64,000 nucleotides of DNA from Pirellulales bacterium (GCA_019745975.1 JAIESQ010000030.1:2513-66512), one strand, 5' to 3'; shown: positions 3,721 through 29,592, counted from the first letter of the stretch. The notes: generated from the letters alone by a model not told the origin. A program made the numbers and translations.

Positions 3721-5817
3721 GTGATGAGACGCATCGAGGCGATGTTGGTCGTCGCTCCTCGCGACATGCTCGCGCACTTCGGCCGCGCGCGTTGGCGTTG
3801 GGTATTGCTCGCGCTTGCCGCCGCGCTGTCGAGCACATCGAGCACCGCCATCAGCCGTGCCGACGAGCCCGTGCGGATACCTGCTGGCGCGGTGGCCACC
3901 GACGATCCCGACGCCGGCGGTCCCGCCAGCTCGCCTCGCAAGCCGCCTGGTCGCGGGCCGACGTCCAGCGAAACCAGCCTCCGCGTGCGCGGTGAAGGGA
4001 ACACTTCCGACGACGACGCTCCCGCGGTCGCCTCCGACGAAACGTCGTCGGCCAATAAGCGCCCCGACGACCGCGATCCGCGCAGCGCCCCGTTGCCCGC
4101 CGATAAAGAAGACGACAAGCCGATCAAACTCGAGGTTGAGGTCGCGCAATTCAATGGCGCGGCCCCTGGCAAGACCACGCGTGCCGAACTGCTCGGCTCC
4201 TGGGGCGCGCCGCACGAGACCACCAAGGTCGACGGCCAACTGCAACAAATCTATAAGATCGAGCCCTTCGAAGATGTCGTCGTCACCTTTTCGGGGGACA
4301 CGGTCGACAGCATCCTCGTCAACCTGATGCAGCCCTTTAAGGCCGACGAGCTGGCCAACGAACTCGAACTCGGCGACCTGCGAAGTGTGACCGTCTACGA
4401 TGAGCAGGGCGAAGCGCTCGGCCAGGCTTTCCCAGAACGGGGTGTGGTCTTCAGCTATTTGCCGAACGATCCGGAGCACAAGGTCTTTCAAGTGCTGGTC
4501 GAACCGCTGGGTGCCCAGGCGTTTGTGCTGCGGGCGGCGGCTACGCGGCATCGTCGCTACCGCGCCAGCCTGGCCGATCTCGACATGGCCATTTCACTCG
4601 ACGAGCGTTCCGCGGCGGCCCACGCGCTCCGGGCCGGGTTGCTGGCCGACCTGGGCCGACATCCCGAAGCGCTGCGCGCCGCCGAGCAAGCAGTCGCCTG
4701 CGACGCCGAGTCGGTGGAATATCACCTGGTGTACGCGCAACAACTCGAACACACCGGTCAGTTCGACAAGGCCTTGACCGAAATCCAGTCGGCTGAGCAG
4801 CTCGCGAAGGATGATCCCGCCTGGCAGGCCGCAGCTCTCGTGCAACGAGCCGACGTACTGGTCGCTGGGCCGCAGCGCGACGTCAAACAAGCAGTGAAGT
4901 TCTACCAACAGGCGATCGAACTTGCCGAACCGCTGGCCGACGACGAGCGCACCGCCGTCCGCCATCGGGCAGTCGACGTGCTGCTGCGTGCCCATCTCGG
5001 CACGGCGCGATCGATCGCTTGGGGCAATTGGAAAAGCAAGAGCGGCGCCGTCGAAAAATGGCTCGAACGCTCGCGCATCTGGGCCGAGCAAGCGGCCGAG
5101 GATGAAACGGCTCTCGAAGGCCAGGCCGCCTTCGCGATCGCGCGCGAGGCCTTGGCCGCGCTCGTCGGACTGCAAGGCCAGGTCGACCCGCAATCGTGGA
5201 CCGACGCGGCGCTCGAACAGGGGCGCAAGCTGATCGATGCCTCGGCCGATTCCTGGATGCGCCGCCGCTGGGAGTGGGAACTGGGCATGGCGCTCTACGA
5301 CACTCTGCAGGTGCTGCACATGCGGCGCGACTTCGAGCCGGCGCTCGAATACGGCACCTTGGCGGTCGCGTATCTCGAACGCTCCGGCGCAGAACGGCAG
5401 GCGATGCCAGGCCACGCCTATATGATGGGGCGGCTCTACTTCCGTATCGGCTCGATCTACGCCATCCAGCAACAGGACCATCGCAGCGCCATCCCCTGGT
5501 TCAACAAGGCGGTACCGCTCTTGGAAGAGCCGATTCCCGATTCGGCGCTGGCCGATGTCGGTCGCCAGGGCGAAACGTTCGTCAGCATCGCCGTGTCGTA
5601 CTGGCAGGCCAAGCAACGCGACGAAGCCTTGCGGCTGACGAACGAAGGCCTGCGACTCGTTGAGCAAGCGGTCCAGGACGGAATCCTCGACCAGTCGGCG
5701 CTGGCCGTTCCTTACACGAACCTGGCGAACATGCATCGCCAGTTGGGTGATGAAGGCAAAGCGCGCAAGTATCGCGAACTGGCTAGCCGCTTCGAAAAGT
5801 CGACGCGCCGCCAATAA
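3721..5817 (+). CDS. Exported tetratricopeptide-repeat protein
   Basis: Hydrophobic N-terminal segment, low-complexity linker, then repeated TPR-like helices (e.g. ALADLDMAISLDE, ALRAAEQAVACDA). Confidence 0.7.
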   Translation: MMRRIEAMLVVAPRDMLAHFGRARWRWVLLALAAALSSTSSTAISRADEPVRIPAGAVATDDPDAGGPASSPRKPPGRGPTSSETSLRVRGEGNTSDDDAPAVASDETSSANKRPDDRDPRSAPLPADKEDDKPIKLEVEVAQFNGAAPGKTTRAELLGSWGAPHETTKVDGQLQQIYKIEPFEDVVVTFSGDTVDSILVNLMQPFKADELANELELGDLRSVTVYDEQGEALGQAFPERGVVFSYLPNDPEHKVFQVLVEPLGAQAFVLRAAATRHRRYRASLADLDMAISLDERSAAAHALRAGLLADLGRHPEALRAAEQAVACDAESVEYHLVYAQQLEHTGQFDKALTEIQSAEQLAKDDPAWQAAALVQRADVLVAGPQRDVKQAVKFYQQAIELAEPLADDERTAVRHRAVDVLLRAHLGTARSIAWGNWKSKSGAVEKWLERSRIWAEQAAEDETALEGQAAFAIAREALAALVGLQGQVDPQSWTDAALEQGRKLIDASADSWMRRRWEWELGMALYDTLQVLHMRRDFEPALEYGTLAVAYLERSGAERQAMPGHAYMMGRLYFRIGSIYAIQQQDHRSAIPWFNKAVPLLEEPIPDSALADVGRQGETFVSIAVSYWQAKQRDEALRLTNEGLRLVEQAVQDGILDQSALAVPYTNLANMHRQLGDEGKARKYRELASRFEKSTRRQ

Positions 5818-15546: not shown

Positions 15547-15569
15547 CGCGAATCTCATGGCGAGTTGGC

Positions 15570-15704
15570 TCGATGCAGTTTCAAAACCCAGTTTGGGTGC
15601 CACTGCTGGCTTGCCCAGCAGTGCATAGTTCGATAGAGCACTGCTAGACGCTTCTTGCAGTGGCACCCGACGTCGGTACATCGCCAGTTTTGAAACTGCT
15701 TCTA
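15570..15704. mobile_element. MITE-like element with terminal inverted repeats and internal REP-like palindromes
   Basis: Perfect 13-bp inverted repeat GCAGTTTCAAAAC (15575-15587) / GTTTTGAAACTGC (15687-15699); internal GGGTGCCACTG...CAGTGGCACCC arms; lies between convergent genes. Confidence 0.75.
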
Positions 15705-15789
15705 CCAAGAAGAAAAGACCCGCGCGGCAGGCACATCGCCCACCGCGCGGGTCAAGTTTTTTAGCAGACCATTGCTATAGCGACGAGCG

Positions 15790-23947: not shown

Positions 23948-26317
23948 CTACTGCAACTCCGCCAGGCCCACGTCGATATACTGCCCGCCGAGACGATTGT
24001 GGCAGTGCACGGCCCAAACGTTCTTGCCCGCACGTAGCGCCTTGCGCCCCTCGTCCGACAGCGCCACCCATTCGTAGTCGGTCGTGTAGCCGGTGGTCTT
24101 CGCGGCCAGCACGCCATTGACATAGATCTCGCACTCCTCGTCGTGATGTACGACGAACACGAGCTTGTCGGGGAGTTGGGCCGGTAGCGTCACCTCGCGC
24201 CGCAGCCAGATGTCGCCCGACTTCCAGGGGGTGCGCACCACTGCACCTGGCGTCCCTTCGGCGCCGAAACCGCCAATTCCCGACTTCCAGCCAGATGCGT
24301 CGAACTCGGGCTTCGTCCAATCGTCGGCCGGCTTCTTATCGGTATAGCGCCACTCGATCGATTCCTCGCGCGCCGTCGGCACGATGATTCGCTCGCGCGG
24401 AAACTTGCCCCGGTTGGCGGCGGCCACGCGGTTCGGGTCGACTTTTACCTCTTCGCGGTCGTAGGTCAGAAGTCCATTGATCTCTTGTTCGACGTCGGTG
24501 AGTTGCGTGTAGACCGCCGCGCTCAGGCCTGGCTTGTCGCGTAGTTGCCAAGTGCGGCGCAGCAGGTTCTGGTAGCCGAGCGTCAGCTCTTCGCGGCCGG
24601 CCGTGCCTCGGTAGCTCCAGGCTTTCCCGGTCCAGACGTGGTTCTCGATGGCCAGCCCTAGCCCGCCAAATTCTCCCAGCACGGCGGCGCGGGTGGGCTC
24701 CGGTTGCGGAGCGCCGGGGCCAGGGTAGGCATGCATGTCGATCACATCGCCGCACTTCTGATCGAACCAGCCGCTGGCGTTGGAAACGATGCGCGTGGGG
24801 TCAAGCTTGCGCACCTGCTCGACCAAGCGCGGCGTGTCGTATTGCCCCCAGCCCTCGTTGAACACCACCCACATGACAATCGACGGATGATTGCCAAGAT
24901 GCTCGATCATCCGTGCGAGCTCTCCTTCGAACTGATCCGCAGCCTCTTTCACCTTGTCGCCGTGCGGCATGTCCTGCCAGACGAGCAAGCCGAGCTTGTC
25001 GCACCAGTAGTACCAGCGGTCGGGCTCCACCTTGACGTGCTTGCGCGACATGTTGAAGCCGAGGCGGCGAGTCGCTTCGATATCGAACTTCTGCGCCTCG
25101 TCGCTGGGGGCCGTGTACAGCCCGTCGGGCCAAAAGCCTTGATCCAGCGGGCCGACCTGAAACAGCGGCTCACCGTTGAACGCCAGTCGCGTGACGCCGT
25201 CGAACTGTTTGAGCTCGATCTTGCGGAGGCCGAAATAGCTGGTGACGTCGTCGAAAGGTTTGGCGCCGTCCCAAAGGCTGAGCGTCAAGTCGTAGAGATG
25301 CGGACGCGTGGGGGACCAGAGCGTTGCATTGGGCAACTCGATTGTGAGCGGGCGGACGGCCTGACCCTCACCCCGCACAACCTCCCGGTCCCCTTCGCGG
25401 ATAATGGCCACGAGCTTCGCGGGCGTGTTGCTGGCCGACGCATATTGGTGCACGCGAATCGTCACTTGCCCCTTGTCGGCGTCGGGCGTGATCTGGAGCC
25501 GCTCGATTCCGGCGACCGGCACTGGTTCGAGCCACACCGTTTGCCAGATGCCCGTGGTCGGGGTGTACCAGATGCCTTCGGCCTTCTTGTGTTGCTTGCC
25601 GTGGGCTTGCGTGCCGGCGTCCGACGGATCGAAGACGCCGACGACCAGCTCTTGGGGGCCGTCTGGTTTTAGCGCGTCGGTAATGTCGAAGCCGAACGGA
25701 TCGTAGCCGCCGCGATGTTCGCCCACTGGCTTTCCATTGATCCACACGCGGGCGTGCCAGTCGACGGCGCCGAACCTCAGCCAGATGCGGCGATTGCGTT
25801 GGCTCTTCGCCCACTCGGCGGGTAGTTCGAACGTGCGTCGATACCAGGCGCGCTCGGTCTGGCGCGTGATGCCGGAGAGTGCCGACTCGATGGGAAAGGG
25901 GACGAGGATCTGTTCGCCCAGCTCGCGACCGATGGGGGGCGGTTCGGCTTCGTCGTTCGCATCGTTTGCATCAACCGTTGCGAACTGCCACAGCCCGTTG
26001 AGATTCAGCCAATCGGCACGGACAAGCTGCGGCCGCGGGTACTCAGGATGGACGCGATCCACAGTGACCTGGCGGCCCCAGCGCGTCATCAGCGGTGCTT
26101 TGCCCGGCTGCCACTCGGCGGCGCGAGCAAACGGAGCCAAACCCGCGATGAGAAGGAGCAGTTTCAAAACCTGGTGTGGGTGCCACTGCTGGCTTGCCGG
26201 CTTGCCCAAAAGCGAATAGTCCTGCACAGCACTGCTAGACGCATCTTGCAGTGGCACCCGACGCCGGTTCAAGGCAGGCTTTGAAACGGTGTCTAGCAAA
26301 CGATGAAGTGATGACAT
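23948..26317 (-). CDS. Exported glycoside hydrolase family 2 with C-terminal galactose-binding-like domain
   Basis: HPEYPRPQL, WLNLNGLWQF, FGAVDW, GPLDQGFWPDGLYTAP, NHPSIVMWVVFNEGWGQ; the N-terminus contains a MITE insertion, so the start is uncertain. Confidence 0.9.
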   Translation of the reverse strand: MSSLHRLLDTVSKPALNRRRVPLQDASSSAVQDYSLLGKPASQQWHPHQVLKLLLLIAGLAPFARAAEWQPGKAPLMTRWGRQVTVDRVHPEYPRPQLVRADWLNLNGLWQFATVDANDANDEAEPPPIGRELGEQILVPFPIESALSGITRQTERAWYRRTFELPAEWAKSQRNRRIWLRFGAVDWHARVWINGKPVGEHRGGYDPFGFDITDALKPDGPQELVVGVFDPSDAGTQAHGKQHKKAEGIWYTPTTGIWQTVWLEPVPVAGIERLQITPDADKGQVTIRVHQYASASNTPAKLVAIIREGDREVVRGEGQAVRPLTIELPNATLWSPTRPHLYDLTLSLWDGAKPFDDVTSYFGLRKIELKQFDGVTRLAFNGEPLFQVGPLDQGFWPDGLYTAPSDEAQKFDIEATRRLGFNMSRKHVKVEPDRWYYWCDKLGLLVWQDMPHGDKVKEAADQFEGELARMIEHLGNHPSIVMWVVFNEGWGQYDTPRLVEQVRKLDPTRIVSNASGWFDQKCGDVIDMHAYPGPGAPQPEPTRAAVLGEFGGLGLAIENHVWTGKAWSYRGTAGREELTLGYQNLLRRTWQLRDKPGLSAAVYTQLTDVEQEINGLLTYDREEVKVDPNRVAAANRGKFPRERIIVPTAREESIEWRYTDKKPADDWTKPEFDASGWKSGIGGFGAEGTPGAVVRTPWKSGDIWLRREVTLPAQLPDKLVFVVHHDEECEIYVNGVLAAKTTGYTTDYEWVALSDEGRKALRAGKNVWAVHCHNRLGGQYIDVGLAELQ
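26153..26295. mobile_element. Second full copy of the MITE-like element, inside the 5' end of the GH2 gene
   Basis: GCAGTTTCAAAAC (26158-26170) ... GCTTTGAAACGGTGTCTA (26278-26295); internal arms align with the 15570 copy; extra GGCTTGCC duplication. Confidence 0.8.
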
Positions 26318-26796: not shown

Positions 26797-29592
26797 ATGG
26801 CGTCCAACTCTGGTCGGCACGAGCCGAGCCGTCAGGCCGGTGTCGTGGCGTTTGTCTTACTGGCGGCCTCCGCGTTTCTGCTGGTGTCGTTGGCCACCTT
26901 TGACGCGGCCGATGCGCCGCGGCGGCTGGTGTACCCGCCCATCGCTGAAACTGGCAACCTTTGCGGCCGCGCGGGGGCTTGGACCGCCGCGCTGTTGTAC
27001 GAAGGGCTCGGCATTGGCGCCTGGTACTTTGCGTTGTCATTGGGTGCCTGCGGCGCGGTGATGATCGGCGGGCATGCCGTCAACGAGCCGGGCGTGCGGA
27101 TGTTCGGCTGGCTCTTGTCGCTGGTCGGCGGGACCGCATTGGTCGACGCCGCGCTACCCGGTTTGGCTGTGGGAACGGTGATCGGATCGGGAGGTTACCT
27201 GGGCGCAACCGTGCGCGGACTGCTTGAACCGCATTGCGAGATTGCCGGCGTTTACATCCTCACGACGGGGCTGGTGCTCGGCGGACTGGTGCTGGCGACC
27301 GACTACTTCCTGTTCCGCACCGTGGCCGTGACCACGCGCGTCACCGTGCGCCAGGCCCAGCGGGGGGCGGGTCAGCTTTCGCACGTCGGCAAGTTGCTGC
27401 CGACCGTCCGCGGTTCGCTGGCACGCAGCACGGCGACGACCGATCTGGAGCAGGGCCCAGCCGAGGCTGACGAGGAAGAGGACGAGGAATCGAGCGACTT
27501 GCGGATCACGCGCGGTGCGGCTAACCGCGACGAAGCTGCGGAAGCCGACACCGAAGGCGCCGATACCGCGGAGGAAGCCGGTGACGGCGAGCCGGACGAT
27601 GAGTCGGCTGCCACCGACAGCGACAAGAAGCCGGCCGACGCGCTGCGCGTCCGCCCGCCTCGCAAGAGTGAGCGCGAGGTCCTGCTGGCCGAGATCGAGG
27701 CCAACAGCCGGCCGTTGGAAGCGGTCGAATACGAAATGCCGTCGCTCGAGCTGCTGTTGGAAGGCACTCCGATGCAGTTCGACGAGCAAGAGAAGGACGT
27801 GCGCCGCAAGGCGAAGATCCTCGAACGCACGTTTGCCAACTTCGGCTTCCAGGTCAAAGTGGTCGAAGTCGAGACTGGCCCGGTCATTGCCCAGTTCGAG
27901 GTCGAACTCGAGGCCGGCCTGCGCTTGAGCAAGATCACCAGCCTGGCCGACGACCTGGCGATTGCCCTGCGCGTGCCGAGCGTGCGTATCGTGGCCCCCA
28001 TCCCCGGCAAGAACACCGTCGGCATCGAGGTGCCAAATGCCGAGCGGCAGCTTGTTCGCTTGCGCGAGGTGATCGAGGAATCGTCGGGCAAGGCCGCTAA
28101 GATGCGCATCCCGATCTTCCTGGGCAAGGACGTCTCGGGCAAGTCGATGATCGTCGACCTCGCGACCTTGCCGCACCTATTGATCGCCGGCCGCACCGGC
28201 ACCGGCAAGAGCGTCTGCTTGAACACGATCATCATGTCGATCCTGATGACCCGCCGGCCCGACGACGTGCGGATGCTGTTGATCGACCCCAAGATGGTCG
28301 AGCTCAGCAGCTACATGCGGTTGCCGCACCTGATGCACCCGGTGGTGACCGACATGAAGAAGGCCGAGGCGATCTTGGCCTGGGCCGTCGACAAAATGGA
28401 GGAACGCTACGCCCTGCTGGCCCGTGCCGGCGTGCGGCATATCAGCGTCTACAACCAGTTGGGGGAAGAGGAACTATTCGATCGCTTGCAGCCGGAGACC
28501 GACGAAGACCGCCAGCATATCCCCACGCATTTGCCGTATATCGTGATCGTGGCCGACGAAATGGCCGACTTGATGATGACCGCCGCCAAGGAGGTCGAGG
28601 GGCACATTATCCGTCTAGCACAGAAGAGCCGGGCGGTCGGCATCCACCTCGTGCTCGCCACCCAGAAACCGACGGTCGACGTGATCACCGGTCTGATTAA
28701 GTCGAACCTGCCCGCGCGCATTTCGTTCCAGGTAGCCAGCCGCACCGATAGCCGCGTGGTGCTCGACGAAATGGGGGCTGACAAGCTGTTGGGCAACGGC
28801 GACCTGCTGTTCCTCTGGCCGGGCACGAGCACGCTGTTGCGCGGACAGGGCGCCTACGTGAGCGACGACGAGATCAGCCATGTGGTCGACGTTGTCGGCA
28901 CGACGGAGCCGCAATTCGTGCAGGAGCTGGTCGCGCTGAAGCCGGCCGCGCCTGACGCCAAGGAAGGGCCGAACCGCCACAACGACGAGCTCTACGACTC
29001 GGCGGTCGATATCGTGATTCGCGAAGGTCGCGGCAGTGTGTCGCTCTTGCAGCGGTCGCTGGGCATCGGCTACGGCCGCGCCGCCCGCTTGATCGACTAC
29101 ATGGCCGAGGACGGGATCGTCGGCCAGTACAACGGCTCACAAGCCCGCGAGGTGCTGGTCACCCTGGAACAATGGCAAGCGATGACCAGCGAAGAAGCGG
29201 CAGACGATCGGCTTTCGGCGGCTAGCGCCGCGGCCTCGACGGGGCTACCGAAGCGCGCCTTGTTACCGCCGCCCGAGCCGCGCGTGCGATCGGGCGCCCA
29301 GGCATCTCGCAAGCAGCCGCCTTTCGTTGTCGATGACGAGGAAGGCGAGGAGGAAGAAGGCGAAGCAGACTCGTTCGACGAAGAATCCGAGGAGGACGAA
29401 TTCGAGGAGGCCCCCGACGCCGATGACGAGTCGGACGAAGGCGAAGCGGACGAGGACTACGGCGAAGACGACGCCGAGGAATCGGACGAAGACGCCGACG
29501 AATTCGACGAGGCCGACGCTGAGGAAATCGACGAAGACGAAGAGGACGACGCCGACGACCCTCCCGCCCCTCGCACACGACACAGGGCGTAG
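26797..29592 (+). CDS. ftsK: DNA translocase FtsK
   Basis: N-terminal TM domain, PHLLIAGRTGTGKS Walker A, IDPKMVEL, LATQKP, gamma domain (SLLQRSLGIGYGRAARLID), acidic tail. Confidence 0.95.
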   Translation: MASNSGRHEPSRQAGVVAFVLLAASAFLLVSLATFDAADAPRRLVYPPIAETGNLCGRAGAWTAALLYEGLGIGAWYFALSLGACGAVMIGGHAVNEPGVRMFGWLLSLVGGTALVDAALPGLAVGTVIGSGGYLGATVRGLLEPHCEIAGVYILTTGLVLGGLVLATDYFLFRTVAVTTRVTVRQAQRGAGQLSHVGKLLPTVRGSLARSTATTDLEQGPAEADEEEDEESSDLRITRGAANRDEAAEADTEGADTAEEAGDGEPDDESAATDSDKKPADALRVRPPRKSEREVLLAEIEANSRPLEAVEYEMPSLELLLEGTPMQFDEQEKDVRRKAKILERTFANFGFQVKVVEVETGPVIAQFEVELEAGLRLSKITSLADDLAIALRVPSVRIVAPIPGKNTVGIEVPNAERQLVRLREVIEESSGKAAKMRIPIFLGKDVSGKSMIVDLATLPHLLIAGRTGTGKSVCLNTIIMSILMTRRPDDVRMLLIDPKMVELSSYMRLPHLMHPVVTDMKKAEAILAWAVDKMEERYALLARAGVRHISVYNQLGEEELFDRLQPETDEDRQHIPTHLPYIVIVADEMADLMMTAAKEVEGHIIRLAQKSRAVGIHLVLATQKPTVDVITGLIKSNLPARISFQVASRTDSRVVLDEMGADKLLGNGDLLFLWPGTSTLLRGQGAYVSDDEISHVVDVVGTTEPQFVQELVALKPAAPDAKEGPNRHNDELYDSAVDIVIREGRGSVSLLQRSLGIGYGRAARLIDYMAEDGIVGQYNGSQAREVLVTLEQWQAMTSEEAADDRLSAASAAASTGLPKRALLPPPEPRVRSGAQASRKQPPFVVDDEEGEEEEGEADSFDEESEEDEFEEAPDADDESDEGEADEDYGEDDAEESDEDADEFDEADAEEIDEDEEDDADDPPAPRTRHRA

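Follow-up and report, generated by a model that had tools for sequence, protein, structure and literature searches.

Within a 64,000-nt stretch of DNA from a Pirellulales bacterium (GCA_019745975.1 JAIESQ010000030.1:2513-66512; hereafter the window), we found that a gene for a family 2 glycoside hydrolase (GH2) carries a MITE (miniature inverted-repeat transposable element) lying in frame between an ATG and the hydrophobic region (h-region) of its predicted signal peptide. Two later changes of length inside this copy, a single inserted base and an 8-nt duplication, cancel each other, and the reading frame stays open. Frame is also maintained across the MITE family as a whole: copies beside genes nearly all have frame-preserving lengths, and those in the relevant phase are open throughout. 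We consider it probable that translation of GH2 begins at the ATG at 26317, or in any case 5' of codon 25, and continues across the element, the product being a long leader that would be cleaved on export. The argument for this read-through is statistical and family-wide; it does not come from the GH2 copy alone. The gene and its insert have the following parts (window coordinates; n, h and c denote the regions of a signal peptide, and TIR a terminal inverted repeat).

23948..26317, minus strand: GH2 glycoside hydrolase open reading frame (ORF), 789 codons from ATG 26317 (ORF list, Pfam matches).
26315..26317, minus strand: ATG, candidate ancestral start, 7 codons 5' of the element (kept in the L021 ortholog).
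26152..26296, unstranded: MITE copy of 145 nt, codons 8-56, 16% diverged from the consensus (family alignment, orthologous copy in L021).
26278..26296, minus strand: gene-5' TIR, CTAGACACCGTTTCAAAGC (consensus CTAGAAGCAGTTTCAAAAC; sequence and family alignment).
26242, unstranded: extra C (+1), marker of a 25-copy subfamily (absent from L021).
26195..26245, minus strand: codons 25-41 (DASSSAVQDYSLLGKPA), read in the other open frame of the consensus, between the two indels (alignment with L021 and consensus).
26191..26206, unstranded: tandem duplication, GGCTTGCC twice (+8 nt), units 26191-26198 and 26199-26206 (alignment).
26152..26170, minus strand: gene-3' TIR, GTTTTGAAACTGCTCCTTC, encoding V-L-K-L-L-L (sequence, L021 alignment).
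26120..26164, minus strand: signal peptide n/h/c regions, K-LLLLIAGLAPF-ARA, with predicted cleavage after ARA at codon 66 (inspection).

All four GH2 Pfam domains scored above their cut-offs in the ORF (PF02837, PF22666, PF00703 and PF02836; Glyco_hydro_2_N, _N2, Glyco_hydro_2 and _C), spanning the N-terminal sugar-binding, immunoglobulin-like and TIM-barrel parts and placing the protein in GH2. Its first 69 codons, MSSLHRL LDTVSKPALNRRRVPLQDASSSAVQDYSLLGKPASQQWHPHQVLKLLL LIAGLAPFARA AEW, contain no stop, and both the ORF and the family alignment bear out the initial annotation of a stop-free MITE between ATG and h-region. Signal-peptide features here and below were read by inspection, with a crude hydropathy scan. 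By eye, K-LLLLIAGLAPF-ARA/AEW (the slash marking predicted cleavage) would fit the positive n-region, h-region and small-x-small motif of a type I Sec signal. The same layout was seen in two orthologs, one on a metagenome contig (L021; LKLLLLIACLAPLARA/ADW) and one in a genome of the same genus (G002; CFLLAATCGRA/ADW). Alignments with GH2 homologs begin only at residue ~50-67, and when 5.8 billion proteins were searched with residues 1-70, nothing matched except the product of the window itself. According to the initial annotation, the leader may have read MSSLHRLLLIAGLAPFARA before the insertion.

We collected MITE copies by BLAST from the window's own genome (G000), a draft metagenome-assembled genome of 204 contigs and 63% G+C, and obtained 116 full-length copies and many fragments. 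At least 20 copies occur in G002 (~28 TIR matches per strand) and a few in a further relative, G001; these assemblies are also drafts. The consensus is 136 nt long, has no transposase gene and is bounded by a perfect 19-nt inverted repeat, CTAGAAGCAGTTTCAAAAC at the start and GTTTTGAAACTGCTTCTAG at the end. CTAG lies on both flanks as the centre of a weak TnnCTAGnnA palindrome (each base present in ~60-87% of copies), and the putative target duplication is TA or CTAG, 2 and 4 nt both being compatible with the flanks. The short length without a transposase gene, the TIRs, the many dispersed copies and their presence or absence between relatives, with empty sites in both directions between G000 and G002, identify the family as a MITE. 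Its interior consists of two inverted hairpins resembling repetitive extragenic palindromes (REPs), CACTGCTGG..CCAGCAGTG and CACTGCTAG..CTAGCAGTG, and the predicted RNA fold is very stable (-88 kcal/mol for the consensus, z = -12; -58 kcal/mol for the GH2 copy).

Measured from one CTAG-equivalent end to the other, 82 of the 116 copies are 136 nt long and 19 are 137 nt, all other lengths being single copies. Since insertion of the 136-nt form at CTAG adds a net 132 nt, or 44 codons, the modal length leaves the reading frame unchanged. On both strands of the consensus, frames 0 and 2 are free of stops and frame 1 contains 5-6; frame 1 cannot occur inside an ORF because CTAG there reads as TAG. 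Stops confined to frame 1 arose in 0.06% of composition-matched shuffles and 2.5% of a perfect-palindrome model. Frame 0 ends in V-L-K-L-L-L in both orientations. Family-wide, 72-76% of copies are open in the frame used by GH2; because most copies are open there anyway, we rejected the absence of a stop across 47 codons as evidence in its own right.

The GH2 copy has departed from the modal length twice. It measures 145 nt (136 + 1 + 8), compared with 137 nt for the second copy in the window, so the 8-nt excess first noticed between the two stands.

15569..15705, unstranded: second MITE copy, 137 nt, +1 subfamily, with no coding-like ORF adjoining (family alignment).

The subfamily to which this second copy belongs comprises 25 copies that have the extra C together with substitutions next to it (GACG[C]TTCTTGCAG, 137 nt), and the GH2 copy carries three of its four diagnostic states, the C at 26242 among them. 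The GGCTTGCC duplication was found in 1 of 116 full-length copies and is no part of the 136-nt consensus; an unrelated 9-nt duplication occurs in one other family copy. The two indels lie 35 nt apart. After codon 41 reading returns to frame 0, and the 145-nt copy as a whole is in the same frame as a 136-nt one. The duplication and the extra C thus compensate each other in the window lineage, and the duplication is needed for an open frame because it offsets the extra C. The initial annotation expected an insert of the other copy's length to shift the frame; this is right for the GH2 copy stripped of its duplication, but the modal 136 nt is itself neutral.

The ortholog on L021 (90% amino-acid identity; synonymous divergence dS 0.58, nonsynonymous dN 0.057) contains the element in the same position, with neither the +1 nor the +8. 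Its 3' end is degenerate in the same way, the terminal CTAG of the gene-3' TIR being gone from both. The insertion is therefore older than the split of the window lineage from that of L021, and the frame is kept in both. The L021 frame is likewise open from the corresponding ATG, and MTRWG follows after 73 codons there and after 76 in the window. One synonymous change separates the first 24 nt and the first 8 codons are conserved, and the 60 nt 5' of the ATG are ~90% identical. The parts of the element that stay in frame 0 differ by 11-13% (7 synonymous and 7 nonsynonymous changes), with an omega of ~0.2-0.3 and a synonymous difference (pS) for the gene of 0.40; the stretch between the indels is about a third diverged, as counted by eye on the alignment. 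A comparison with orthologs lacking the insert, as the initial annotation had advised, turned up the G002 gene (84% amino-acid identity), which has no element. The leader of this gene, MNRSNLARRVTGSSTSISSTCMLCFLLAATCGRA/ADW, is unrelated and its upstream neighbour is a different one; the 5' region of the gene aligns with that of the window at a score below the shuffle mean. For the same reason we dropped CTGCTAGCC in G002 as a candidate empty target. When metagenomes were scanned with the mature N-terminal region, only homologs of ≤60% identity came up, and no further close orthologs.

We then related all copies to the genes around them. An ORF was counted as coding-like if it had at least 200 codons and G+C contents by codon position in the order GC3 > GC1 > GC2, a pattern shown by the true frame only, and phase was defined as the ORF frame relative to the element end, phase 1 being the one in which CTAG reads as the stop TAG. 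Of 116 copies, 58 adjoin a coding-like ORF. Gene-adjacent copies fall into phases 0, 2 and 1 in numbers of 35, 24 and 4 (chi-square p = 8e-6), a bias that argues against placement in 5' untranslated regions (UTRs), which would show none. Estimated from the phase-1 count, roughly 50 copies (~44%) lie inside coding sequence. Every one of the 35 gene-adjacent copies in phase 0 can be read through without a stop, compared with 117 of 197 other copy-frames (59%; p = 1e-7), and frame-preserving lengths were found in 55 of 58 gene-adjacent copies as opposed to 30 of 58 others (p = 1.3e-7), with divergence from the consensus alike in the two sets (0.110 and 0.109). An in-frame start codon precedes the element in 51 of 59 gene-adjacent cases. 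The +1 subfamily is nearly absent beside genes unless a second indel restores the frame; such compensation was seen in four of six gene-adjacent copies and in 2 of 19 others (p = 0.015), and the copy at C201:4550 provides a second clear path from frame 0 to 2 and back within a leader. Frame is thus maintained across the family, which has in-frame, stop-free copies in genuine ORFs above chance, as expected of a coding palindromic repeat.

In most gene-adjacent cases the end of the element runs, by inspection, into a hydrophobic stretch and then an AXA, lipobox, Tat-like or prepilin-like motif. At a strict threshold, the hydropathy score picked out 24% of these cases compared with 2.7% of random in-gene windows; enrichment over ordinary N-termini was modest only. 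The hairpin is not weakened in genes (median -76 kcal/mol for embedded copies, -72 for others).

Empty sites for other copies tell where the host genes begin. At C204:131212 of G000 the element splits ...CLLGGI/VMVLIGAIA... (the slash here marking the insert), whereas G002 reads on uninterrupted through ...RLVHGVMVVALGCAIA..., and the ATGCG start context at C116:10841 of G000 is the same in G002, which has no insert. In the other direction, we fetched 20 G002 copies (phases 6/3/1), among which the signal peptides L112, L120 and L125 have the element just 3' of start codons homologous to G000 starts, and L111 represents an insert of the UTR type. In a methyltransferase-like gene (LDLCCGSG motif; L117 in G002, C194:~75180-75260 in G000) the element lies in frame 24 codons past an N-terminus that is conserved; homology flanks the insert on either side, and the G000 ortholog is uninterrupted. 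Here a non-secreted protein keeps a 44-residue insert. Empty sites in both directions indicate that the ancestral start codons lay 5' of the element.

The history that best accommodates these results would begin with a CTAG-flanked, 136-nt palindromic MITE inserting between the GH2 start codon and the Sec h-region before the window and L021 lineages parted. The insert would add 44 codons, with its V-L-K-L-L-L end running into the h-region. A leader of ~66 residues would be cut after ARA, leaving the mature enzyme unchanged, and the insert would be tolerated because leaders are removed on export. In the window lineage the +1 and the 8-nt duplication would then have cancelled, keeping the frame. 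Several points weigh against this history. A leader as long as ~66 residues, in which 50 residues precede the h-region, is atypical; the TTG in the gene-3' TIR would yield a canonical 16-residue signal peptide, MKLLLLIAGLAPFARA. A stable hairpin would sit inside a translated region, as strong in gene-embedded copies as elsewhere. Net frame conservation in one copy between two orthologs has a ~1 in 3 probability by chance, L021 is a contig of 2.9x coverage, and the sole insert-free ortholog lends the ancestral start no support, its 5' region being non-homologous. Finally, a history of its own, and not selection, could in part account for the lack of the 137-nt subfamily in genes.

Two alternative starts within the element bear on how much of it is translated.

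26165..26167, minus strand: TTG, codon 51, inside the gene-3' TIR, alternative start giving MKLLLLIAGLAPFARA (also in L021 and in the TIR consensus).
26270..26272, minus strand: TTG, codon 16, start of the public gene call P0001 (774-aa product).

It is less probable, but a serious alternative, that the TIR TTG is the real start. The MITE would then have supplied a start codon, the lysine of the n-region and three leucines, and the ATG with the 50 codons before the TTG would be an untranslated 5' leader whose frame is incidental. MK-LLLLIAGLAPF-ARA/AEW has, by inspection, a canonical n/h/c layout; TTG-AAA-CTG-CTT-CTA is the TIR consensus, and more than 20 copies run straight from it into a hydrophobic stretch and an AXA or lipobox. 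This start would also fit the late onset of homology in GH2 alignments, and the frame through the element is open in 72% of all copies regardless. However, it predicts that genes would tolerate frame breaks, and we observed an open frame in every phase-0 copy and frame-breaking lengths in only 3 of 58. The 24 phase-2 copies have no TIR start codon, yet they too precede h-regions. The TTG itself sits in the stem of a stable hairpin, and in the window the two indels cancel. Frame continuity across the family argues that a TIR TTG alone does not rescue frame-breaking inserts, and for this reason we rank the ATG above it.

We regard as improbable a start at an in-element codon 5' of the indels, either TTG codon 16 or GTG/TTG codon 21, with the element translated in part. 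In the window as in L021 either codon could serve as a start, and since they precede the +1 and +8 they explain frame compensation equally well; the gene caller picked codon 16. Yet we found no ribosome-binding signal or other support for such a start, the empty sites of other copies place the conserved start 5' of the element and not inside it, and conservation of ATG 26317 with the first 8 codons also argues against it. It is very improbable that the duplication or the open frame arose as an error in assembling the draft genome, with no biological frame-keeping: two independent assemblies (the window and L021) both show the open frame, short-read assemblers rarely make an 8-nt tandem duplication plus a separate +1, and the family-wide statistics are independent of the GH2 copy.

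In the public gene calls, GH2 and its two orthologs are given three starts that do not correspond to one another: the in-element TTG (P0001), an ATG 3' of the signal peptide (P0002) and an ATG within the leader that omits the n-region (P0003). Rfam, sigma-70 promoter and terminator scans gave no matches. The divergent neighbour at 26797-29592 (plus strand) is a 931-codon ORF that, from reading its translation, appears FtsK/SpoIIIE-like and has an unusually long Asp/Glu-rich C-terminal tail of ~110 residues.

A few copies in G000 lie deeper in genes. One (C136:14531-14666; L129) interrupts, in frame, the central part of a 917-codon ORF: an O-antigen ligase-like Wzy_C domain (368-512) precedes it and C-terminal TPR repeats follow. 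It is a true internal insertion and not part of a leader. A 1984-codon, very hydrophobic ORF with no Pfam match (C193:57-6008; L127) contains two in-frame copies (1474-1609 and 3881-4016). An exported protein encoded 3' of 37347-37482 on C162 has a phase-2 leader copy and, ~250 codons further on, an element-like peptide, ...GAALGATAGLPSSAT, which suggests a second, partial copy.

As to the origin of the family, the inner 73 nt with the two REP-like hairpins (consensus ~27-99) occur in many genera of the order (relatives G004-G040), whereas the TIRs are restricted to this genus, a distribution suggesting that the MITE came about when transposon ends captured a REP doublet. REPINs, which are REP doublets mobilised by RAYT transposases, have neither TIRs nor target duplications. 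The present family shares with them the inverted doublet core, and its genome contains Y1 transposase (Y1_Tnp) genes, but the TIRs and CTAG flanks set it apart and it does not classify as a REPIN. The CTAG (YTAR) targets and TIRs starting GAAG... presumably recall the IS5 family of insertion sequences (ISs). We found no autonomous IS with the same TIRs in G000, G001 or G002, an absence that is weak evidence in draft assemblies, and among TIR pairs 0.3-5 kb apart none encloses a transposase. Two long TIR pairs in G000 considered as an autonomous element turned out to be two MITEs either side of ordinary genes. The DDE_Tnp_1 loci examined have ends unlike the MITE TIRs. One ~890-bp IS with DDE_Tnp_1 (G000 C203:75113-76005; ends CTAAGAACAAGTCTTCA) shows a loose TIR likeness and is a weak lead to a mobiliser. 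A perfect TIR pair 575 nt apart in G002 (C27:84038-84612) may be a longer non-autonomous relative. Neither the four consensus peptides nor the GH2 leader matched any NCBIfam or Pfam entry.

The closest known parallel is with the Rickettsia palindromic elements, repeats of ~100-150 bp of which many copies are in frame and stop-free in genes (PMC10969869, summarising Ogata et al. 2000, 2002). Like them, this MITE is palindromic, has an in-frame, stop-free share of copies, adds a conserved peptide and is retained in orthologs. Unlike them, it has clear 19-nt TIRs with CTAG flanks and resides in a free-living planctomycete; the two are unrelated in sequence, and the MITE peptides have no family match. 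Most of its coding copies fall within N-terminal leaders or signal peptides, which would presumably be removed, and not in the mature protein; few are internal. The likeness to Rickettsia elements drawn at the outset is therefore apt for the family as a whole, whereas 'domestication' is less fitting than toleration in a cleaved leader. Intragenic bacterial MITEs are also described for ERIC, Coxiella QMITE1/2 and Anabaena (PMC10969869, PMC5896051). These too are non-autonomous TIR elements forming in-frame fusions or extensions, but their in-frame cases are occasional, mostly C-terminal extensions or hypothetical ORFs, in contrast to the large coding share and maintained frame seen here. The word 'signal' is absent from the main texts of PMC10969869 and PMC5896051, which thus do not mention a signal-peptide niche. 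Our literature searches turned up general reviews of intragenic MITEs, and nothing on planctomycetes, on a MITE family concentrated in the coding regions of signal peptides or on this family.

Rickettsia provides the best-known in-frame coding repeats, and their toleration there is put down to insertion at the protein surface. The present family would suggest another way for selfish DNA to persist in genes, in which it sits in a part of the protein that is discarded on export. For annotation, the consequence is that one gene and its orthologs receive non-equivalent start calls, and predictions of the planctomycete secretome would miss or misread leaders of 60 residues or more. The ~50 natural leaders with a common 44-residue insert would also form a test set for the limits of length and structure in the Sec n-region. 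It is possible, although we lean somewhat against it, that the whole family has been shaped for life in coding sequence, through its CTAG target, its length of 44 codons, its freedom from stops in both phases and orientations and a V-L-K-L-L-L end that rebuilds the n/h junction. Cleavable signal peptides and other N-terminal leaders would then be safe harbours for the element, and by making export signals longer, giving them new starts or creating them anew it could rewire the secretome of these planctomycetes.

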